The notes under the pieces are model-generated. The model was given only the letters and a program-made list of their open reading frames with translations. It was not told the DNA's origin and ran no database searches. A stretch of DNA of 64,000 nt from an uncultured Bacillota bacterium (GTDB lineage: Bacteria > Bacillota > Clostridia > Christensenellales > UBA1242). Positions 7,292 through 62,627 of this stretch are shown piece by piece (positions within the stretch are counted from its first letter, which is position 1; every line of letters starts with the position of its first letter). A program made the position numbers and the translations under genes. Location: positions 55,460 to 119,459 of the forward strand of contig CAMMTJ010000003.1 in the NCBI GenBank assembly GCA_946499835.1, given 5' to 3'.

Positions 7292-7316
7292 ATATATGTT
7301 TTTATTTGGAGGAAAT

Positions 7317-10157
7317 ATGGCAGGAAGACTAACATTGAAATTAGACAATTTAGAAAAACTCGGCATTTCACTTGCAGAGAAAGAGGAAATCAAAAAATTT
7401 ATCAAAGACAACCCTCAGATCAAAGAAAGAGTAGATAAAATTCAAAAAGTTTTGAAAGACAAATTTTATCTTTCTGAAACAGAAGTGGAAAATTATATTT
7501 TGAAAATTTGTGAAGATGAAAGTGAAAAAGATATTTTCTTTTTCCAAGACATTTTTGAAGAATTTGAAAAGAATGACGTTGGAAGTTTTGATGCTGACGA
7601 GCGAAAAAAGCAAGCAAGGAATATCATTTTTGACGTTTATGACCTCTACAAATCCCAAACCAGAAAGGTTGGAGAAGATTTCATTGATTGTATGCGTGAA
7701 GCAAAAAGACTGGGCATTGATCCATTCCGTTTTGCCATAAAAACAAACATTGAAAAGGCAAATGGCGATAAGTTTCAACAAACTCTTGATTCTTTGACAG
7801 CAGAATATGATGCAATGTATTTCAAGAAAAACTCAGCAAAAAATGAGACAGAGATTTTGTTTTCTCATGACGAAACAAAAGCAATTCTTGAACAATGCAT
7901 GACACTTGCCATGCGACTTAATTGCGACCTTGTGGAATATGTTTTACTTACTCTTAGTGATCTTGCTTATGACAAAAAGAAAGGTGTTTTTTATGCAGAC
8001 GTGAGAGAATTTATAAGAAAAGCACCTTCAATTTTGCTTGCAAATCCTTTGAGCATCGAATCGACAATTTCAAAATTGAAAAATTATTATGAAAAAATAG
8101 GAAAAACACAAGAAGACCTTGTGCAGAGAGTTCTTCAAAGTCCTTCTGTGCTTTGTGCAGATAGCAAAGATATTGACAGCACGATAGATCTTTTAGCCAA
8201 AAACTATCAATCACTTATAAGTCAATTGCCTGAAAAAATTAGACGTGGCAAAGATGCAAGGGTTATGGCTGAGGCTTTTGCTTATGATGTGACAAATCTA
8301 TCACAAATCAAATCACTCAAAACTGAAAGTTTTGGAAAAATGCAAGAAATCCTTATCAAATACCTTGGCGCTGAAAATGCACTTACTTGCTTCCAAAATA
8401 TGGAAATATTAAATAAGGCGCCAGAAATTGTTGAATATGCACTAGCAGTCATTTCAACAGCGCCTAACAGCAAAGACCTTCGCGAAAAATTCGTCAAAAG
8501 CCCAAACACTTTCATGGAAGAGAAAAAAGATTTTTCTCAAAACAATTCTGACATTGAAGGCGGAGTGGGCACAGAACGCAAGACATTCTTTGCAAACAAA
8601 GAGACTTTGCCAGATGTAAACCTTTCAAAAGAAGAAATAGAAAATCTTAAAAACAAACTTTCAAAGAAAGACCTCAAAACATTGCAAGAAAAAATTGATG
8701 CCGAAAAAGAGCGTTTGGCAGAATTGCAACGTAAATATGAAGAGGAAAAAAGAAAACGCAGAGAAGAGAAAAAAGCGCGTGAAAAAGCAGAAAAAGAAAA
8801 AAGAAGAGCAGATAGAAAAGCAAACAAAGATAAAAAACCTTCTCAAATTATTGTTAATGCTCAAAATCTAAGTGAGCAAGAAAACAAACCTCAACTTAGT
8901 TATGAGGAAAAAATGAGAAAAAGGCTCTCTTATTTATGGCCTCCGAAAAAAGGTAAATTAAAATCAGGAGAGGTGGCACACAAAGATTTTGAAAATATTT
9001 ATGAACCTATTTTCAACGTACTTGATAGATGTGGTATTGAATTAGATTTGCCAAAATATAAGGATGTAAAAGAGATCTTTAAGAAATATGATAGTTTGGC
9101 AGTCGATTCAATGGTGGCATCGCAACTTTCAATTCTCTATGGACAATTTTTCAAATCTTTATTATCAGAAGGCGTGGAAACCCCTATAATCAGTTTGTTG
9201 AGTTCAACTGAGGATAACGAAATTAGAAAAATGTTTACAATGGCTTCCAATATTAAAGATAGCACAGGAAACTCTGATAAATATCTGATGAAAGTGAAAG
9301 AAACTGATACTTTGGCTGATTTGTTTATCAAATATGCAGATGGTGCTTATCGAGCGACAAAAGATGTTCAAGACAGGTTGTTTGACCTTGTTGATAAAAC
9401 GAATGAAATAAGTCAGGAACCAAAAAATAGCGAAAATATAACAGTGAATTTTAGACTTGTTGAAAGGTTCTTGAAAAATTATATCGAAGAATGTGACAAG
9501 CAGTTGATAGACCTCATTGGGCAGGAAAGATATGATCAATATTTTGATGAAGATACAAAGAAGATTAAAGATATAATTGAAAAGAAAGTGCTTTCAGATA
9601 AAAATATAAAACCTATCAACTCACCAGTTATTGTTTGTAAGGGATATGTTGCTCCTGCATTAGACTTTATCAAACTAATGGCACGGGAACTTAAAAGGGG
9701 AGACTATATTAAACAATTTGACAGAGTTGAAGATGAATATGCCGTCAGATTGCAAAGTAAATATCTTGATGCCATCGCAGAAATGACGGATGAAATCAAA
9801 AATAAAATAACATCTTTGCCTGGCGAAGGCAATATGCTGGTGCTTAAAGCAGAAGATGAGAAAGGAAAACCATATCGAGTTATTGCAATAAATGATGGAG
9901 AAGTGATAAAACAAAAAGAAAATGGAGAGGATAAAAAGATAACTGCATTCACGATCGCTGCTGTATCTAATGACCCAAATTATTTTGGAGATCCGCTTTT
10001 CTATCAAATTTCGAAAAGACCATCCCTTGTTACCATGGATAAAAATGGTAGTTTTGGTATAAGGGACGTGCTTGGCTTGGTTGATGTTGAAAATACAGAA
10101 TTGAAAATTGATGGATTTGATGTTCAAGGCAAGAAAGGTGATATGGGCATAAAATAA
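7317..10157 (+). CDS. large orphan protein, 946 aa: N-terminal helical repeats (tentatively mTERF-like), a central K/E/R coiled-coil, and an unassigned C-terminal half
   Basis: A long uninterrupted ORF with ATG at 7317 behind GGAGG. It has its own promoter and terminator. It occupies the tsf-frr gap where pyrH normally lies. No family recognised. Confidence 0.8.
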   Translation: MAGRLTLKLDNLEKLGISLAEKEEIKKFIKDNPQIKERVDKIQKVLKDKFYLSETEVENYILKICEDESEKDIFFFQDIFEEFEKNDVGSFDADERKKQARNIIFDVYDLYKSQTRKVGEDFIDCMREAKRLGIDPFRFAIKTNIEKANGDKFQQTLDSLTAEYDAMYFKKNSAKNETEILFSHDETKAILEQCMTLAMRLNCDLVEYVLLTLSDLAYDKKKGVFYADVREFIRKAPSILLANPLSIESTISKLKNYYEKIGKTQEDLVQRVLQSPSVLCADSKDIDSTIDLLAKNYQSLISQLPEKIRRGKDARVMAEAFAYDVTNLSQIKSLKTESFGKMQEILIKYLGAENALTCFQNMEILNKAPEIVEYALAVISTAPNSKDLREKFVKSPNTFMEEKKDFSQNNSDIEGGVGTERKTFFANKETLPDVNLSKEEIENLKNKLSKKDLKTLQEKIDAEKERLAELQRKYEEEKRKRREEKKAREKAEKEKRRADRKANKDKKPSQIIVNAQNLSEQENKPQLSYEEKMRKRLSYLWPPKKGKLKSGEVAHKDFENIYEPIFNVLDRCGIELDLPKYKDVKEIFKKYDSLAVDSMVASQLSILYGQFFKSLLSEGVETPIISLLSSTEDNEIRKMFTMASNIKDSTGNSDKYLMKVKETDTLADLFIKYADGAYRATKDVQDRLFDLVDKTNEISQEPKNSENITVNFRLVERFLKNYIEECDKQLIDLIGQERYDQYFDEDTKKIKDIIEKKVLSDKNIKPINSPVIVCKGYVAPALDFIKLMARELKRGDYIKQFDRVEDEYAVRLQSKYLDAIAEMTDEIKNKITSLPGEGNMLVLKAEDEKGKPYRVIAINDGEVIKQKENGEDKKITAFTIAAVSNDPNYFGDPLFYQISKRPSLVTMDKNGSFGIRDVLGLVDVENTELKIDGFDVQGKKGDMGIK

Positions 10158-43712: not shown

Positions 43713-43742
43713 AAAAAGTCCCTTTTGAAGGGGCTTCTTTTT
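43711..43742. terminator. bidirectional terminator between convergent genes
   Basis: 7-bp stem GTCCCTT (43718-43724) pairs with AAGGGGC (43728-43734), flanked by an A7 run on one side and a T-rich run on the other. Confidence 0.6.
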
Positions 43743-45342
43743 ATTTCCAATATTTTATCAAAATGTATCTCTTTATGTAATATCTCAAAGGAAGCAAAAT
43801 CAAAGTTACTCCAATAGGAAGAATAAGCGTTGTTGCGTAAAGAGAAAAGTTTTCACTGTTCATACCAAAGGCGAAATTAAGACCAATAACAACACCGCAA
43901 ACAAGGGCTGTCATAAGCCAAACAAGCCACTGACTTTTCATAGGTGCTGGCTCCCAACTTGTGTATTTTGCATTGTTGTATGCTTTGACTGCAACATCAA
44001 TTAAGTATAGCAAAGGCAACACAATATACAAGAAAGTTGTTGAGGTGTTCAAATTGTTTGTTGAATATAAAATTGCAAACAAGACTGCTGAGAAGACTGC
44101 AAGTCCCAAGAAGGTGAACAGGGTGGTGATAAGCATAAGTTTGTTTGTGTTGTGACTTATCTTTGACTTTTCTTTTGAATAAGATTTGAAAGAAAGGTTT
44201 TGTTTTTTGTAATATTGAGACAAATCTTCATAGTCTAGCATATAGTTTTCGCTTTGCTCATCTTCACTTGCTCGGCTCTTTGAATAAATCCTAGAAATAA
44301 TTTCCTTGTGAGATGGATCAATATTGATGTCACGCTTTGGAGCAGGGAGTTTTTGCTCTCTTTGTGAAATTGGCTCAATTTTAAGTCTAGGAGGCTCAAT
44401 CATTTTAGCTCTGCCAATACTGTTTGAAGAAACACGCTCAGTAATAAGCACACCGTCATCCGGCTTCTCTTCAATGTGGCTTTCTTCTTGTCTGTCTCTG
44501 TTCATTCTAAAAGCAAATTGTTCATCAGTGAGACGAGAAGAGTATTTTGCCTTGTTTTCAAGCAGTGAATTTTTGAACTCTTCCACCTTTGCTTTTGTTT
44601 TTTCATCAGAAACTTGAAGTGGATCTTCTGGCGCAGTCATAGCAATTTGATCTTCTGCAAAACTTCTCTTTTTGCGATAACGTGTCATATCTTTTGAAAT
44701 ATCATAAAGTCTCTTGTTGTATTGTTCTGCTTGCAGGCGATCTTCTTCGCCCAAAACAACTGCATCACTCTTTGCATTTGTTTCCTCTTTTTCAGGCAAT
44801 TCTGTATCCCTTTGTGATGCGGTGATAGGGGAAGGTTCGCTCTGTCTCACTTCTTCAATAGGTTCTTCCTTAATATTTTGCTCTGCAAATTGATCCTGAG
44901 AGGCACTTTCTTCTTGTTTCGCAGGAGATTCACTAAGTGATGAAAAATCAAAGAAATCACTATTCTCTTGCTCTGTCTCATCTTGCTCTTGGAGAGCAGT
45001 CTCATTATTTTGAGAAGGTTTTTCTTCTGCGTTAAAATCTCTAAAAACATTGAAATGATTGCGTTCAAACTCTTCTTTAAGTTCTTGATACACAGTGCGT
45101 CCTTTTTCAGTTATACTGTAATATCTTCTGTTTGGGCCAAGTTCACTGCTTTGCATATAAGAAGAAACCAGCCCTTGTTTTTCCATTCTGGTTAAGTTTG
45201 AATAAACACTTGGTTTTTTCAGGTCTATGTTGCCATTTGAACGTGTTTTAATCTCTGTGATTATGTCAAGACCGTAAAAATCACGTTCTAGCAGGCAATT
45301 TAATATTAAAAATGATAGTTGACCTTTTGCATAAATCTCCAT
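43741..45342 (-). CDS. membrane-anchored PadR-family regulator: N-terminal PadR winged helix, ~300-aa acidic disordered linker, C-terminal 4-TM domain
   Basis: The N-terminus LSFLILNCLLERDFYGLDIITEI...SVYSNLTRMEKQGLVSS...RRYYSITEKG is a PadR-type wHTH. Four hydrophobic helices fall in the last ~150 aa. SD GAGGGA is present. Confidence 0.8.
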   Translation of the reverse strand: MEIYAKGQLSFLILNCLLERDFYGLDIITEIKTRSNGNIDLKKPSVYSNLTRMEKQGLVSSYMQSSELGPNRRYYSITEKGRTVYQELKEEFERNHFNVFRDFNAEEKPSQNNETALQEQDETEQENSDFFDFSSLSESPAKQEESASQDQFAEQNIKEEPIEEVRQSEPSPITASQRDTELPEKEETNAKSDAVVLGEEDRLQAEQYNKRLYDISKDMTRYRKKRSFAEDQIAMTAPEDPLQVSDEKTKAKVEEFKNSLLENKAKYSSRLTDEQFAFRMNRDRQEESHIEEKPDDGVLITERVSSNSIGRAKMIEPPRLKIEPISQREQKLPAPKRDINIDPSHKEIISRIYSKSRASEDEQSENYMLDYEDLSQYYKKQNLSFKSYSKEKSKISHNTNKLMLITTLFTFLGLAVFSAVLFAILYSTNNLNTSTTFLYIVLPLLYLIDVAVKAYNNAKYTSWEPAPMKSQWLVWLMTALVCGVVIGLNFAFGMNSENFSLYATTLILPIGVTLILLPLRYYIKRYILIKYWK

Positions 45343-45390: not shown

Positions 45391-45423
45391 ATGAAATAAC
45401 TTAATTTATAAATAAATTAAAAA

Positions 45424-45448
45424 CACTAGTATGCACGACATACTAGTG
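45424..45448. promoter_or_regulatory. perfect 10-bp inverted repeat, candidate operator in the divergent promoter region
   Basis: CACTAGTATG-cacga-CATACTAGTG. It lies 8 bp upstream of the -35 of the DUF45 gene and 34 bp upstream of the -35 of the PadR gene. Confidence 0.5.
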
Positions 45449-45490: not shown

Positions 45491-46102
45491 ATGAAAATTA
45501 TAAGATCAAAAAGGCGAACAGTGAGTTTGTCAGTTGGCAATGATGGGGAAATCATCGTTCGAGCACCAAAAACTTATCCAGACGAAAAAATTGCAAAGTT
45601 CGTAGAGGAAAAGAGTGGGTGGATAGAACGCCAAAGAAACAAACTCTCAAAAATGAAAGCCTTTGAACAACAATTTGACTTTGAAAACAAGATTTACATA
45701 TTGGGAGAGGAGTGCAGTCCTGCTCAATTTGATATGTCTATGCTCACATTAAATAAAGTTGAACTAAAAAAAGAGATTGAAAAAATATATGAAACCTATT
45801 CCAATGAAGTTCTGCCTGAGATTGCCAAAGAAGTGATAGACAAAACCGGTCTTAAATGCAACAGTATCAAACTCACCAAATCAAAAAGGGTGTGGGGGAG
45901 TTTTGATAGGCAATACAACATGAAACTCAATCACAAATTGATTGTTTTGCCAAGAGAAATTGTCGTCTATGTGGTGATTCATGAACTTTGCCATGGGCTT
46001 CAACTCAATCATTCGCCAAAATTCTGGGCAAATGTCAAATCGTTTTGTCCAAACTATAAAAAACTTAGAAATGCTCTCAAAATGTATGCTTTTCTTTTAT
46101 AA
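45491..46102 (+). CDS. YgjP-like zinc metallopeptidase/hydrolase (DUF45, M48 superfamily)
   Basis: N-terminus IIRSKRRTVSLSV...IIVRAP, and C-terminal HExxH block VVIHELCHGLQLNHSPKFW. Confidence 0.8.
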   Translation: MKIIRSKRRTVSLSVGNDGEIIVRAPKTYPDEKIAKFVEEKSGWIERQRNKLSKMKAFEQQFDFENKIYILGEECSPAQFDMSMLTLNKVELKKEIEKIYETYSNEVLPEIAKEVIDKTGLKCNSIKLTKSKRVWGSFDRQYNMKLNHKLIVLPREIVVYVVIHELCHGLQLNHSPKFWANVKSFCPNYKKLRNALKMYAFLL

Positions 46103-46111
46103 AAACAAAAT

Positions 46112-46138
46112 GGCCACAAAAATGTGGTCTTTTTTTTA
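46112..46138 (+). terminator. rho-independent terminator after the DUF45 gene
   Basis: Stem GGCCACA (46112-46118) pairs with TGTGGTC (46123-46129) and is followed by T8. Confidence 0.8.
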
Positions 46139-46509
46139 ATTAGTTTTTTTTAACCATTTTATCAAAGACGCCTTCATAATAGAGGGTGATACAAGAGGAT
46201 TTATGGCAAGATAAGAGGGTGGCGTCCTGCTATCCTTAGTCTCAAAATAAATTTTCCAACAAATCGTAGTAAAAAATAGGGGAGTTTTCAAGTAGGGAAA
46301 AGAGGAGTGAAGCATTTTAAGAGTTGTTTTATAGAGTTTTGTTAGAAGAGAGAGTTAAAAAAATGCTGTGAGGAGAAGAAATAAAATATAAAGAGGATGT
46401 CTCATTAAAAAAGAGGAAAAGGGGCTCCATTTGAGAGCAAATTGGGAATAGAAAAGATAAGAGGGAAGCCTTTTTTAATGAAAAATTCCACAAATTTCTA
46501 CGCTTATAT

Positions 46510-46539
46510 CTATGCGTAAAAGACAGGTTTTACGCATAG
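46510..46539. repeat. perfect 12-bp inverted repeat with a 6-nt spacer
   Basis: CTATGCGTAAAA (46510-46521) - gacagg - TTTTACGCATAG (46528-46539). The 5' arm overlaps the stop of a 13-codon mini-ORF (46478-46519). Confidence 0.8.
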
Positions 46540-46837
46540 AAAGGCGCATACTAGCGTTAAAATAGCGACTATTTTGTTATTTTTTTATAATTTATTTTTT
46601 ATTATGTTTTTTATATTTTATTTTAGATTCTGTATATAACTTATTTACTTATCTATCAAATTTGCATACTAGTTCTTTATAAAATTCAAACAATACCTTA
46701 TCATTTTTGCTGATTGTTTATCTTTCTTCATTTTGAAAGCAAACTGGAAAATTGTATTCTAAAAGAGATTGAAATTTACAAGTAATTATTCAAAGTCAAT
46801 ATTGAGAATCGATTTGAACGCGTTTTAGAGACGCTTT

Positions 46838-46868
46838 ATAAAAAAAATTTGGAAGAAATTCTCCCAAA
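46838..46868 (-). terminator. candidate terminator after the 321-aa gene
   Basis: On the minus strand: GGGAGA-att-TCTTCC hairpin (46865-46851) followed by AAATTTTTTTT. Confidence 0.45.
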
Positions 46869-47834
46869 TCATTTCATATTGGTCAAATGGTTCAAAAGTC
46901 TCGCAAAACCAGAAGCACTATTTCCGCACAATTTGTCTTTGAATATACTGTTTTCTGGATTTTCAACAGACTTAAATTCTCTCATTGAATGCATACTGAG
47001 ATAATTTATAATCTTCACAAACGTCTTGTAAGCCTCATTTTCTTCAAAAAGATCGTCTGGGCAATTATAAAGCACGCTTTCCATAAAAATCTGGTTTGGC
47101 ATATAGTTGTTTATATCATAATACAGCACATTTAAGATTTTGAGCACATCGACAAAGACTCCCCCAACACGCTCAATTTTTTCATTTAATGACTGTATTC
47201 GCGTGCTAAAATCAACTGAGATATAGCCTTGCTTTTTATTAACAAAATACTTGAATTTTTCACCATCATAAAGCACAAGAATAAGCACAATTTGTGTGTT
47301 GCTTCCAAAATCTTCTTTTCCAACTACTGTGATGCGATTGTCATTGAGATACAAAAGCGTGGTTGGAAGCATATATTTGGCAATCGCTGTTTGAAGATCT
47401 TCTGCCAAATTATATATATTATAATTTGCTGGGTCAAAATTGATTTTTACCTCTTGCAAACTCTCTTCTTCTTTTTTCTTTTTGCGTTTTGAAACTTTTT
47501 TCTTTACTTTGCGATTGTTCCAAGCATATACAATTCTGTTTTTGAAATTTTTCCAAAAACGTGAACTTCGAGAAGTGTTCAAATCAATTTGAGCGTTGTC
47601 AACTGCCAGAAAATAAACAAATTTTGAATTGTCCGTCATTGCGCCATTCAAAAGTTCGTTTGCTGGTTGCAAAATAACATTGTTCAAGTTGACATAAGAA
47701 ATCTGTTTCGAAAGATCTTCAACGGCATTCGAAACTATTGCTTTCATTTTCTCATCAACAGCATCAATATATTCAATATTATCATTTCGAACAATGCTTT
47801 CAATGAGCCCTCTTGTTATCGCACCTCTTCTCAT
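46869..47834 (-). CDS. hypothetical 321-aa protein, possibly a divergent nucleotidyltransferase-fold protein, translationally coupled to serS
   Basis: SD AAGGGG overlaps the serS stop, with an 11-nt gap. The C-terminal region LKILNVLYYDIN...IFMESVLYNCPDDLF resembles the helical signature of Pol-beta/CD-NTase-like proteins. There is no clean GS...DxD motif. An internal K-rich insert (KKKVSKRKKKKEEE) is present. Confidence 0.7.
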   Translation of the reverse strand: MRRGAITRGLIESIVRNDNIEYIDAVDEKMKAIVSNAVEDLSKQISYVNLNNVILQPANELLNGAMTDNSKFVYFLAVDNAQIDLNTSRSSRFWKNFKNRIVYAWNNRKVKKKVSKRKKKKEEESLQEVKINFDPANYNIYNLAEDLQTAIAKYMLPTTLLYLNDNRITVVGKEDFGSNTQIVLILVLYDGEKFKYFVNKKQGYISVDFSTRIQSLNEKIERVGGVFVDVLKILNVLYYDINNYMPNQIFMESVLYNCPDDLFEENEAYKTFVKIINYLSMHSMREFKSVENPENSIFKDKLCGNSASGFARLLNHLTNMK

Positions 47835-47845
47835 TCAATCCCCTT

Positions 47846-49132
47846 TTATTTTTTTGGAAAAATTTGAGTTTTTCCACCCATATATGGTTGCAAACATTTT
47901 GGAATAGAAATTGAGCCATCTTCTTGTATATTATTTTCCAAAAATGCAATAAGCGCCCTCGGTGTTGCCAAAACTGTGTTGTTGAGAGTGTGCAAATAAT
48001 ATGATTGTTTGTCATTTTTTGCTTTTATGCCAAGTCTTCTCGCTTGTGCATCACCAAGTGTTGAACAAGAACATACTTCAAAATATTTCTTTTGTCTTGG
48101 ACTCCATGCTTCAATGTCACAACTTTTCACTTTCAAATCAGCAAGGTCGCCACTGCAACATTCAAGTGCTCTGACTGGAATATTCAAATTTCTGAAAATT
48201 TCAACTGAGAAATGCCACATTTTGTCATACCAAGCCATGCTATCTTCTGGTTTGCAAAGGACGATCATTTCCTGTTTTTCAAATTGATGAACTCTATAAA
48301 GTCCACGTTCTTCAAGTCCATGTGCGCCAATTTCTTTTCTAAAACATGGAGAATAAGATGTCATAGTTATAGGCAAAGATTGTTCATTGATGATTTGTCC
48401 CTTAAATCTTCCAATCATGCTGTGTTCACTTGTGCCAATAAGATAGAGGTCTTCGCCTTCTATTTTATACATCATGGCTTCCATTTCAGCAAAACTCATG
48501 ACGCCATTGACCACATCGCTTCTTATCATAAATGGTGGTATTGCATAAGTGAAGCCTTTGTCAATCATAAAATCTCTGCCATAAGCAAGCATAGCCTCAT
48601 GAAGTCTTGCCGCATCACCTATGAGATAATAAAACCCCGTGCCACTTGTTCTTCCAGCGCTTTCTTTATCAAGTCCACCTATGCTGTCAAGAATATCGGC
48701 ATGATATGGCACTTCAAAACTTGGGACTTTGGCTTCACCATACCTTTCAATTTCCACATTTTCTCTGTCATCTTTGCCGATAGGAACGCTTTTGTCAATA
48801 ATATTTGGAATGACCATCATGTCTTTCTTTATTTTTTCGGCAAGTTCTTCTGTCTGCTTTTCAATCTCAACAATCTTTTGATTGTTTTGCACCACTTGTG
48901 CCTTGATTTTCTCAGCCTTGTCAACTTCTTTATTTTTCATAAGCATACCAATTTGTTGACTTAGGCTGTTTCTCTGTGCACGGAGATCATCTCCTTGCTT
49001 TTTTAATTCGCGGATTTGACTGTCAAGAGCCAAAACCTCATCAACATATCCAAGTTTTTCATCTTGAAATTTCTTCTTGATATTTTCTTTCACGAGGTCT
49101 GGATTTGTCCTAATCAAATTTATGTCAATCAT
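47846..49132 (-). CDS. serS: seryl-tRNA synthetase
   Basis: N-terminal coiled-coil arm (MIDINLIRTNPDLVKENI) and class II motifs (FRKEIGAHG, RVHQFEKQE, GDAQARR). Confidence 0.95.
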   Translation of the reverse strand: MIDINLIRTNPDLVKENIKKKFQDEKLGYVDEVLALDSQIRELKKQGDDLRAQRNSLSQQIGMLMKNKEVDKAEKIKAQVVQNNQKIVEIEKQTEELAEKIKKDMMVIPNIIDKSVPIGKDDRENVEIERYGEAKVPSFEVPYHADILDSIGGLDKESAGRTSGTGFYYLIGDAARLHEAMLAYGRDFMIDKGFTYAIPPFMIRSDVVNGVMSFAEMEAMMYKIEGEDLYLIGTSEHSMIGRFKGQIINEQSLPITMTSYSPCFRKEIGAHGLEERGLYRVHQFEKQEMIVLCKPEDSMAWYDKMWHFSVEIFRNLNIPVRALECCSGDLADLKVKSCDIEAWSPRQKKYFEVCSCSTLGDAQARRLGIKAKNDKQSYYLHTLNNTVLATPRALIAFLENNIQEDGSISIPKCLQPYMGGKTQIFPKK

Positions 49133-49185: not shown

Positions 49186-49342
49186 CTAAACATCAAACAT
49201 ATCAAAACTTTCTTGCTATGCAAACAAGTCAAATTGTCGTTATATAATGCAAAAACAAAATTCGATAAAGTTATACCACAATATCTTGTGGCTTGTATGA
49301 GCATAATAGCACATATATGCTTTATTTATTGTCAATTTTTGT

Positions 49343-49371: not shown

Positions 49372-49377
49372 ATGAAT

Positions 49378-50427
49378 ATGGCTCAAAGTTCTTTTTATCA
49401 AAAAAGAGATTTGCAAAATAGAATCAAGACTGGCAAATATATTGAAAACTTGCCTGAGTTTTGCTATGACTTTTTGATTGCGATTGAAAACAACACATCT
49501 TCACTTACAAGATATAATTATGCCATGGATCTTTCTATATTTTTTGACTATCTCGGCAAGTTTGTTTTCAATAAACCTCGCAAAGATATAACTCTTGACG
49601 ATATTGAAGATTTGAGAACAAAAAATATTGAGCAGTATTTATCATACCTCACCTATTATGAAGACGATGAAGGCAAAGTGATGAAGAATGGCGAAAACGG
49701 AAAGGCAAGAAAACTTGCTTCAATTCGTTCTTTATTCAAATATCTTTTCAATCACGATCTTATCTCAGCAAACATTGCAAGCAAGATTGAGACGCCAAAA
49801 CTGCATAATAAAGAGATCATCCGTCTTGAACAAACAGAAGTTGAACATATGCTTTCTTCTATTGAAAACCCTCAAACCTTTTCTGAAAGGCAAAAGAATT
49901 ACAACAAAAACACTTTTGAAAGAGACAATGCCATTGTCACTCTATTTCTTGGCACAGGCATTCGTATCAGTGAACTGGTTGGACTCAATGTAGAGAGTTT
50001 TGATTTCTCTCAAAACGCCTTTACAGTCACTCGTAAAGGTGGAAATCAAAGCACTCTTTACTTTTCAAATGAAGTTGCAAGAGCACTCAAAACTTGGCTT
50101 GAAAAGAGAGCCACACTCGGACTTGACAAAGATGAAAAGGCAATGTTTATTTCCTTGCAAGACAAACGCATCTCAATACGCGCAGTTGAGAATTTGGTTA
50201 AAAAATTTGCAAAGGAAGCCTCCCCTCTTAAAAAAATATCACCTCACAAACTGAGGAGCACTTTTGGCACAAACTTGTATCGCGAAACAAAGGACATCTA
50301 TATTGTTGCCGATGTGCTGGGGCATAAAGACGTCAACACAACCAAAAAGCACTACGCCGCAATAAGCGAAGATATGCGAAAATCTGTGGCAAGCGCGGTA
50401 ACTCTACGAAAAGATGAAAATAAATAA
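49378..50427 (+). CDS. tyrosine recombinase, XerC/XerD family
   Basis: Core-binding N-terminal domain (LPEFCYDFL...SSLTRYNYAMDLSIFFDYL) and catalytic residues in GIRISELVGL, HKLRSTFGT and LGHKDVNTTKKHY. An alternative start lies at 49372. Confidence 0.85.
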   Translation: MAQSSFYQKRDLQNRIKTGKYIENLPEFCYDFLIAIENNTSSLTRYNYAMDLSIFFDYLGKFVFNKPRKDITLDDIEDLRTKNIEQYLSYLTYYEDDEGKVMKNGENGKARKLASIRSLFKYLFNHDLISANIASKIETPKLHNKEIIRLEQTEVEHMLSSIENPQTFSERQKNYNKNTFERDNAIVTLFLGTGIRISELVGLNVESFDFSQNAFTVTRKGGNQSTLYFSNEVARALKTWLEKRATLGLDKDEKAMFISLQDKRISIRAVENLVKKFAKEASPLKKISPHKLRSTFGTNLYRETKDIYIVADVLGHKDVNTTKKHYAAISEDMRKSVASAVTLRKDENK

Positions 50428-61201: not shown

Positions 61202-62053
61202 ATGAAAATGACTTCATTTGTTATCGATAAGCCATACAAATCAATATTTTTCTTTCTTAAAAACAATGGCTTTTCTGAAAACTATATCTCCAACTTGCGA
61301 AAAACTTGGGGAAACTTTGTCTTAAACGGCATTGAAGTCAATATAAGAGCCCCTCTTAAAAAAGGAGATGTTCTCAAAATAAACAGCAGCCCAAACCAGA
61401 AAACCACTATTATGCGTTGCATACTACCACTAGATATTGTATATGAAGATGAATACTACTTACTAATCAACAAACCAGCGGGACTTTCAACCTCTCCATC
61501 ACGATCACATTATGCACAAAACCTCTCAGGAGCAATATGTGCATATATGGACAAGTTTGATCCCGAATTTGTTCTGCGTATTGCTGGCCGTTTGGACAAA
61601 GATACATCTGGAATTGTCATAGTTGCAAAAGACAGCATTTCAATGAAAGAACTTAAAATTCTTGACAAAACATATTATGCCATTTGTGAAGGTGTTATTG
61701 ATAAGGATGAGATTGTTGACAAAAAAATTTTAACCATTACTGAAAATGGCGTCAACAAACAAAAACGAGAGATATCCCCTCTTGGCAAGGAGGCAAAAAC
61801 ATTTGTCCATCCTATCAAAAATGATGGACAGCACACTTTGATTAGATTGAACCTTGAACATGGCAGAACCCATCAAATAAGAGTGCATTTGGCAAGCATT
61901 GGGCACCCTCTTGTTGGCGACACTCTTTATGGCAAACTTTCACTTTTTATAAACAGATGTGCACTCCACTGCCGAGAAATAAAGTTTTATCATTATATAA
62001 AAAAGGAAGAGATTGTGATAACCACACCTCTTCCAAAAGATTTCTTTCTATAA
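61202..62053 (+). CDS. RluA-family pseudouridine synthase
   Basis: S4-like N-terminus, catalytic block RLDKDTSGIVIVAKD, and HQIRVHLASIGHPLVGDTLYG. Confidence 0.88.
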   Translation: MKMTSFVIDKPYKSIFFFLKNNGFSENYISNLRKTWGNFVLNGIEVNIRAPLKKGDVLKINSSPNQKTTIMRCILPLDIVYEDEYYLLINKPAGLSTSPSRSHYAQNLSGAICAYMDKFDPEFVLRIAGRLDKDTSGIVIVAKDSISMKELKILDKTYYAICEGVIDKDEIVDKKILTITENGVNKQKREISPLGKEAKTFVHPIKNDGQHTLIRLNLEHGRTHQIRVHLASIGHPLVGDTLYGKLSLFINRCALHCREIKFYHYIKKEEIVITTPLPKDFFL

Positions 62054-62545: not shown

Positions 62546-62627
62546 GCAGGCGTGGCGGAATGGCAGACGCGCATGTTTAAGGGGCATGTTCGAAAGAGTG
62601 TGGGTTCAAGTCCCACCGCCTGCACCA
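62546..62627 (+). tRNA. tRNA-Leu, class II, anticodon read by eye as AAG, CCA encoded
   Basis: Acceptor GCAGGCG/CGCCTGC. D arm GCG-GAATGGCAGA-CGC. Anticodon stem CATGT/GCATG with loop TTAAGGG. An 11-nt variable arm. T arm GTGGG-TTCAAGT-CCCAC. Discriminator A73, then CCA. Confidence 0.85.

Follow-up and report, generated by a model that had tools for sequence, protein, structure and literature searches.

A 64-kb window (the whole stretch of DNA analysed here, taken from contig CAMMTJ010000003.1 of an uncultured gut Clostridia bacterium) was studied around an unusually composed spacer that carries a perfect palindrome. The spacer lies between two convergent genes, encoding a YgjP-like metallopeptidase on the + strand and a 321-aa protein on the - strand. 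With 766 nt between the two stop codons it is the longest non-coding gap within the window, and the length of 730 nt given in a preliminary description of this DNA holds if the distance is measured from the end of the upstream terminator. A gene for an Xer-family tyrosine recombinase is located 2.8 kb to the right of the palindrome and is the only tyrosine recombinase gene in the window.

The palindrome and the strand-composition switch

The palindrome consists of perfect 13-bp arms around a 6-bp non-palindromic centre (Table 1). The preliminary description had recognised it as a perfect inverted repeat but had taken the arms to be 12 bp long (46510-46539). It was unique in the window even when three mismatches were permitted, and none of 100 shuffles gave a match. 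Among contigs of the same species the 32-bp site is invariant while the bases on both of its flanks vary. The 13-6-13 arrangement matches the generic layout of dif sites, which have arms of about 11-14 bp and a centre of 6-8, up to 11 bp.

Analysis of strand composition showed that the cumulative G-C skew reaches its maximum at 46468, 41 nt from the palindrome, and the cumulative purine excess at 46568, so that the two maxima flank the palindrome. The GC skew is positive across the left 46 kb of the window and negative across the right 17 kb. Nearly all long open reading frames (ORFs) left of the site are on the + strand and those on the right are mostly on the - strand. This joint polarity of skew and gene orientation points to a replication terminus, and the compositional split noted earlier within the spacer can therefore be read as the junction of two replichores. 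Both halves of that split were found as described: positions 46180-46475 contain 66.2% purines, which places them in the top 1.8% of windows, though eight further stretches on the left side of the site reach the same level, and positions 46560-46860 contain 20.9% G+C, the minimum of the whole window. Among the explanations proposed beforehand, a chromosome-dynamics site is the one which these data favour, the spacer being the switch point of GC skew and gene orientation and the inverted repeat behaving as a dif-type site.

When the B. subtilis site and a generic pattern for the XerD arm were used as queries, no canonical dif of the E. coli or B. subtilis type was found near the skew switch. 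One weak match occurred inside a gene 22 kb from the switch.

Table 1. Positions of the features in and around the convergent spacer
Feature	Position	Strand	Details
YgjP-like metallopeptidase gene	45491-46102	+	
Intrinsic terminator of the YgjP-like gene	46112-46129, T-run to 46137	+	7-bp stem, 4 G-C pairs, T8
Purine-rich, non-conserved filler	46139-46508	+	left replichore side; holds the direct repeat and the mini-ORF
Direct repeat, 12 nt	46208-46219 and 46454-46465		AAGATAAGAGGG
Mini-ORF, 13 codons	46478-46519		MKNSTNFYAYIYA
dif-type recombination site (predicted)	46509-46540	.	left arm TCTATGCGTAAAA (46509-46521), centre GACAGG (46522-46527), right arm TTTTACGCATAGA (46528-46540)
Flank block kept only in the clade of the window	46541-46602	+	GCATACTAG (46546-46554), A/T hairpin AAAATAG-cga-CTATTTT (46559-46575), CTATTTTGTTAT and T-run
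AT-rich, T-rich, non-conserved filler	46603-46868	+	right replichore side
Terminator-like hairpin with T-run, 3' end of the 321-aa gene	46836-46870 (hairpin 46870-46846)	-	
321-aa protein, CD-NTase-like fold (predicted)	46869-47834	-	between site and xer
serS	47846-49132	-	between site and xer
Xer-family tyrosine recombinase, XerS-like	49372-50427	+	351 aa; Pfam Phage_integrase and SAM-like N-terminal domain; presumed enzyme for the site

Conservation of the site and of the recombinase gene

The best NCBIfam model for the recombinase was XerS (NF003462), which matched over its full length (8-353 of 360) with 183.2 bits, the XerC, XerA and XerD models following close behind. The nearest PDB entries were XerA and XerD (E-values 7e-19 and 4e-18), with XerH weaker (7e-9). 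The motifs GIRISEL, RKGGN, HKLRSTF, LGHKD and KKHY are present and align to the XerD stretches which carry the catalytic Arg, Lys, His-x-x-Arg, His and Tyr, and the predicted active site R-K-H-R-H-Y is intact as judged from this alignment.

Homologues of the recombinase (53-83% identity) were collected with 10-kb flanks from one genome per species, which gave 80 loci. All 80 loci belong to uncultured gut Clostridia named Christensenellales, Candidatus Caccovivens, Onthoplasma or Borkfalkia. About 47 of them carry the palindrome upstream of xer, at a distance of 0.1-4.7 kb, and it was also found in four contigs of the window's own species. Contigs of this species keep the order of the 321-aa gene and serS between site and xer. 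In the genome loci the site is always intergenic, does not overlap any ORF of at least 100 aa and lies mostly between convergent genes, with a - strand ORF of similar size to the 321-aa gene usually on its right. The spacers around it range from 93 to about 2300 bp. The large spacer of the window is for this reason not a conserved property, and the significance that had been attached to its length as such is not borne out.

Alignment of 43 genome sites gave the consensus (A)TCTwTkCGyAAAA-N6-TTTTrCGmAwAGA(T), beyond which conservation ends sharply. The arms comprise 14 bp in most relatives, and 7 of the 14 arm positions are invariant. The two arms co-vary, with 97.2% of cells paired and 60 double changes, a value that none of 500 shuffles attained, and the signal was abolished when the partner column was shifted. 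Only 3 of 602 cells contained a G-T combination. The centre is always 6 bp long and non-palindromic, differs between lineages and in some is inverted relative to xer.

A search of metagenomes with the degenerate palindrome (20 specified bases) gave at least 120 loci from termite, rumen, rodent and human gut. Among the matches listed, the arms were fully symmetric at the eight free positions in 70 loci and showed one mismatch in 30 more, and a Xer homologue (39-69% identity) was encoded in the same stretch in 44 loci, mostly 18-700 bp away. Of the listed loci, 24 extend for 2.5 kb or more to both sides of the site; 16 of these have the terminus polarity and not one has the reverse. In some metagenome variants the arm reads TCTTTCCGAAAAA, this being the left arm published for difSL, ATCTTTCCGAAAAA. 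No locus listed in either collection contained more than one copy of the palindrome.

The skew switch was also seen in relatives. With at least 3 kb on each side, 33 of 40 genome loci showed positive skew to the left and negative skew to the right of the site, and in 39 of 40 the left value exceeded the right one. When both collections were taken together (57 loci), 20 had their cumulative-skew maximum no more than 500 bp from the site; a uniform distribution predicts 3.9, the highest count in 2000 simulations being 11. On either side of the site, the strand that runs towards it is rich in purines or A in almost every relative, as is expected from replication-strand bias. By comparison, 18 xer loci without the palindrome showed no interior switch from positive to negative skew over 16-21 kb, their cumulative extreme lying at or near the end of the locus, so that the palindrome accompanies the skew switch and not merely the gene.

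Outside the site the spacer is poorly conserved. Within the species about 92% of columns are identical over its full length, and between species blastn conservation is confined to about 46504-46602, that is the site and some 60 nt on its right. In the alignment of relatives the site was conserved and co-varying, but the mini-ORF, the direct repeat, the left half and the right end were not conserved between species. Searches by blastn and tblastx against the 80 related loci gave matches only at the site and its right flank and none in the purine-rich or AT-rich parts, and the spacer found no match in phage and plasmid collections. A decayed gene or mobile-element scar, which had been considered as an origin of the spacer, thus left no remnant in these searches.

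The small features named in the preliminary description do exist. The 12-nt direct repeat is exact, and its first copy differs between same-species contigs. The 13-codon mini-ORF carries non-synonymous changes within the species (Ser to Phe, Tyr to Arg) and is absent from other species. The A/T hairpin followed by a T-run is specific to the species of the window, its pairing being lost in relatives. The spacer is not strictly ORF-free, because its left half contains two minus-strand ORFs of 59 and 54 aa; indels in same-species contigs shift the frame across them. For the 59-aa ORF the sole real match among 1.8 billion representative proteins was a 60-aa protein with 81% identity, and no homologue was found outside the species.

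In the clade of the window (11 members aligned) the block to the right of the site reads GCATAMTAGC, 13-14 variable nucleotides, CTATTWTGTTAT and a T-run. A second inverted repeat in this region, GCATAATAG..CTATTATG, was considered as a conserved hairpin and rejected, as its pairing is lost in the window and in loci L011 and L024. Other clades have words of their own repeated on both sides of the dif-like site, and each clade seems to keep a different motif pair. In L049-L055, L060, L064, L070 and L071 such words are placed at distances of about 40 nt (left) and about 58 nt (right) from the site, and further loci with clade-specific flank words are L056, L059, L067, L068, L072, L074 and L080. 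Among the flanking words of these clades are GTTAACA and TGTGGAWA, the latter present as direct repeats and similar to the complement of a DnaA box.

Interpretation, alternatives and neighbouring features

With a probability of about 0.85, the spacer is a replication terminus and the inverted repeat the dif site of this uncultured gut bacterium, which stands near Candidatus Caccovivens / Christensenellales; the same estimate covers the view that the spacer outside the site is poorly constrained terminus DNA. Judged on sequence, the palindrome and the recombinase would form a XerS-like, loxP-style symmetric dif module, ordinary in function and new in form for this group. The symmetric changes of the arms argue for a single recombinase, and one protein would be expected to bind both arms because of their strict Watson-Crick dyad symmetry, the sequence-specific invariant positions and the fixed spacer.

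In the proposed mechanism two copies of the recombinase would bind the two identical 13-14-bp arms, presumably with no second Xer protein taking part. The two dif sites of a dimeric chromosome would meet at the septum, where the tyrosine of the KKHY motif would cut at either edge of the 6-bp centre. Strands would then be exchanged in two consecutive pairs by way of a Holliday junction, which would convert the dimer into monomers. Xer recombination at dif is normally activated by FtsK/SpoIIIE, and a similar dependence may be assumed here; no FtsK gene was found among the scanned large ORFs of the window. On each side the strand read towards the site is G- and purine-rich, and the + strand accordingly flips from purine-rich to T-rich at that point.

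Several observations weigh against this interpretation. The recombinase scores below the XerS equivalog cutoff of NF003462 (183 vs 267 bits). Linkage of site and gene is not universal, as a subclade of xer loci (L009, L012, L014-L020, L022, L023, L025, L027-L029, L031-L033) lacks the palindrome within 10 kb, its recombinases being 66-75% identical to that of the window; in this subclade the xer gene appears to have been parted from the terminus. The skews of the two flanks keep the same sign in 7 of 40 genome loci and, among the metagenome matches listed, in 8 of 24; roughly one third of the usable loci lack a clean reversal of flank skew. Related loci moreover share ancestry and synteny, so that the counts given above are not independent observations. 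Finally, the symmetric co-variation of the arms is also compatible with an RNA hairpin.

This last point leads to the proposal that the palindrome and its surroundings encode a structured RNA, either a small RNA or a leader or attenuator with the 13-codon ORF. Folding of the region is indeed stronger than that of shuffled sequences, with z = -3.1 and -2.8 for the two strands and the 13-bp hairpin dominating, the two sides of the stem co-vary, and the A/T hairpin with its T-run lies downstream on the + strand. Half of the stem positions are invariant, however, the loop is always 6 nt, and the 3 G-U cells among 602 are few for an RNA stem. The 13-bp hairpin has no U-run on either strand, the mini-ORF is altered or missing as described above, and the site tracks the skew switch and the Xer gene and not a flanking gene or orientation. 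It also lies beyond the terminators of both convergent genes, which probably shield the spacer from transcription. At the gathering score no Rfam family was found in the spacer, the sole match at threshold in the window being a tRNA at 62546, and a permissive scan near the spacer gave only sub-threshold alignments of IS128, isrD and MicA to the upstream terminator hairpin. A terminator or leader-peptide attenuator was rejected on the lack of a T-run, the non-conserved leader ORF and the lack of a downstream + gene, the last of which had been pointed out before and is confirmed by the gene layout. An RNA function is on these grounds regarded as very improbable. No more credit can be given to an operator for a dimeric transcription factor or a terminus-organising or fork-arrest site (matS/MatP-like or Ter/RTP-like). 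Perfect dyad symmetry with sequence-specific invariant positions and the location at the terminus would suit such a site, but it lies between the 3' ends of convergent genes, with no promoter to control, and occurs once per locus where matS or Ter sites come in several copies. Polar fork arrest is impossible from a symmetric site, the 13-6-13 arrangement with its AAAA-N6-TTTT core is the layout of a tyrosine-recombinase core site, and the neighbour that is conserved encodes a Xer recombinase.

Integrases are common among tyrosine recombinases, and six viral contigs carry the palindrome family, which raises the question whether the recombinase is a mobile-element integrase, with the palindrome as attachment site or integration scar. 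This is highly unlikely in view of the housekeeping neighbours (serS, spoIVB, recN, argR), whose order is conserved within the species, and of the recombinase gene itself, which follows host divergence from 53 to 99% identity. No mobile-element genes and no further copy of the site are present, its position coincides with the skew switch, and the phage and plasmid collections contained no match to the spacer. A different proposal leaves the dif site in place and gives a function to its flanks, the purine-rich left and T-rich right halves being clustered motifs that orient FtsK/SpoIIIE towards dif, or accessory sequences of the cer/psi kind. It could draw on the strand bias towards the site seen in nearly all relatives, on A/G-rich words such as AAAGAAGA (skewed 31:3), which resemble the A-rich motif of L. 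lactis (PMC5357621), and on the block of about 60 nt conserved within the clade. The skew of such 6-8-mer words is confounded with coding-strand bias, though, and the words yielded no one clear motif; neither GAAGAAG nor GAGAAGGG occurs in the left half, conservation of the flanks does not extend across species, and the spacers of some relatives measure only about 100 bp. Functional flanks are accordingly considered unlikely, with somewhat more in their favour than the preceding proposals.

The occurrence of the palindrome in viruses deserves separate mention. The degenerate pattern gave six matches in viral contigs, and the exact site of the window gave none. The viral family (ATCTATGCGyAAAA-caatgc-TTTTrCGCATAGAT) was located in L206 (457-488), L212 (9734-9765), L222 (712-743), L207 (2822-2853) and L211 (3936-3967); L110, L117, L136 and L209 are also listed for it. 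The phage types of L206 and L207 encode a terminase and a major head protein, and L206 additionally a portal protein. Two phage lineages, with terminases that share only 36% identity, have the site about 240-470 bp upstream of their large terminase gene, and phages with terminases 62-68% identical lack it. The available stretches contain no Xer-like gene and no skew switch. Phages that carry the palindrome may exploit the Xer system of the host. In a wider form, a large and mostly uncultured clade of gut Clostridia would possess one XerS-related recombinase and a fully symmetric, loxP-like dif with asymmetry only in the 6-bp centre, and tailed phages would use the host Xer proteins for integration or for resolution of their own multimers; to this broader proposal we would assign even odds.

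As for the genes in the vicinity, the 321-aa protein matched no Pfam or NCBIfam family. Its structural model (predicted local distance difference test score 87) resembles bacterial CD-NTases (CdnE, CdnC) and MiD51 with a template-modelling score of about 0.6, and the family consensus has no obvious acidic DxD pair, so that the protein may be a non-catalytic nucleotidyltransferase fold. No effector of the type found in cyclic-oligonucleotide-based antiphage signalling systems adjoins the gene in the species of the window. The window, which encodes RNase Y, the spoIIIA operon, spoIVB, recN, argR, IF-2 and several tRNA synthetases, is from a spore-forming member of the Clostridia. For a 953-aa leading-strand ORF (7296-10157, + strand) no Pfam family was found at E <= 0.001. 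A 533-aa protein (43741-45342, - strand), one of the few encoded on the - strand left of the terminus, has a PadR domain confined to its first ~90 residues and is far longer than usual PadR regulators.

The 9-mer GCATAMTAS occurs 12 times in the window against 0.8 expected, a count not equalled in any of 100 shuffles. Its positions include 45412-45436, 46546-46554, 46664-46672, 49301-49309 and 61404-61430 and seven more. Copies often stand close together in inverted orientation, such as CACTAGTATG-tcgt-GCATACTAGTG in the promoter region that separates the divergent PadR-domain and YgjP-like genes, and related loci contain GTGTATTATGCAA / TTGCATAATACAC pairs. Unpaired copies occur to the right of the dif site (two) and upstream of xer (one). 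The word looks like a putative operator. It was also considered as a possible -10 element for a sporulation sigma factor, but the close inverted pairs look more operator-like.

Comparison with known Xer systems

No such system was found for Clostridia or Christensenellales in open-access full texts. The survey of Kono et al. covered XerCD genomes only and explicitly left single-recombinase systems open. If the assignment is right, the site marks the terminus in genomes that are known only from metagenome bins, which would aid the orientation and closing of assemblies and the interpretation of coverage-based estimates of growth rate. As a short defined site it could also serve for marker excision ("Xer-cise") should these bacteria be cultured, and the phage copies hint at Xer-exploiting mobile elements in Clostridia.

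The two-recombinase systems XerCD/dif of E. coli and CodV-RipX/dif of B. subtilis agree with the present one in role, position, the arrangement of two arms around a 6-bp centre and the use of Xer-family enzymes. They employ two recombinases and two differing arms, whereas the arms here co-vary as one sequence. Cre/loxP shares the perfect 13-bp inverted repeats and the restriction of asymmetry to the spacer, but it belongs to phage P1 and not to a chromosomal terminus, and its spacer has 8 bp compared to 6 here. No particular similarity of the recombinase to Cre was found at the protein level.

Closer parallels exist among the single-recombinase systems. In XerH/difH of Campylobacterota (Debowski 2012, PMC3325230; Bebel 2016) the centre is likewise 6 bp long, the inner core AAAA-N6-TTTT is common to both sites (difH: TGAAAA-N6-TTTTCA), the site is at the terminus and the gene is often near it. 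In the PDB the present recombinase has, in contrast, closer matches in XerA and XerD than in XerH, and the outer arm sequence differs. The arms of difH are imperfect, their asymmetry ordering binding and cleavage, while those of the window are perfect. XerL/dif of Legionellales, as described in PMC9765430, offers a precedent, being a lineage-specific single-recombinase system recognised by comparative genomics and by the integration of mobile elements; it belongs to another phylum.

Among named systems the nearest is XerS/difSL of streptococci and lactococci (Le Bourgeois 2007; Nolivos 2010, PMC2965235). It too has a single recombinase of about 350 aa, for which XerS is the best full-length NCBIfam model here, a recombinase gene linked to the site (next to it in many relatives, at 2.8 kb in the window) and a site at the terminus, and the arm ATCTwTkCGyAAAA is close to the left arm of difSL. 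Two of its defining features are missing, namely the equivalog score, with the cutoff not reached, and the asymmetric site: difSL has 31 bp with unequal, imperfect arms and a longer centre (ATCTTTCCGAAAAACTGTAATTTTCTTGACA), in place of symmetric 13-14-bp arms and a 6-bp centre. The host is also a Clostridia lineage and not a member of the Lactobacillales. Since the unequal arms set the order and direction of strand exchange in difSL and difH, these would have to be set otherwise here, and the perfectly symmetric site would offer a natural test of how such enzymes order the exchange. Beside XerS, XerH and XerL, the system would be the fourth single-recombinase Xer lineage of bacteria, and it would belong to an abundant gut clade.

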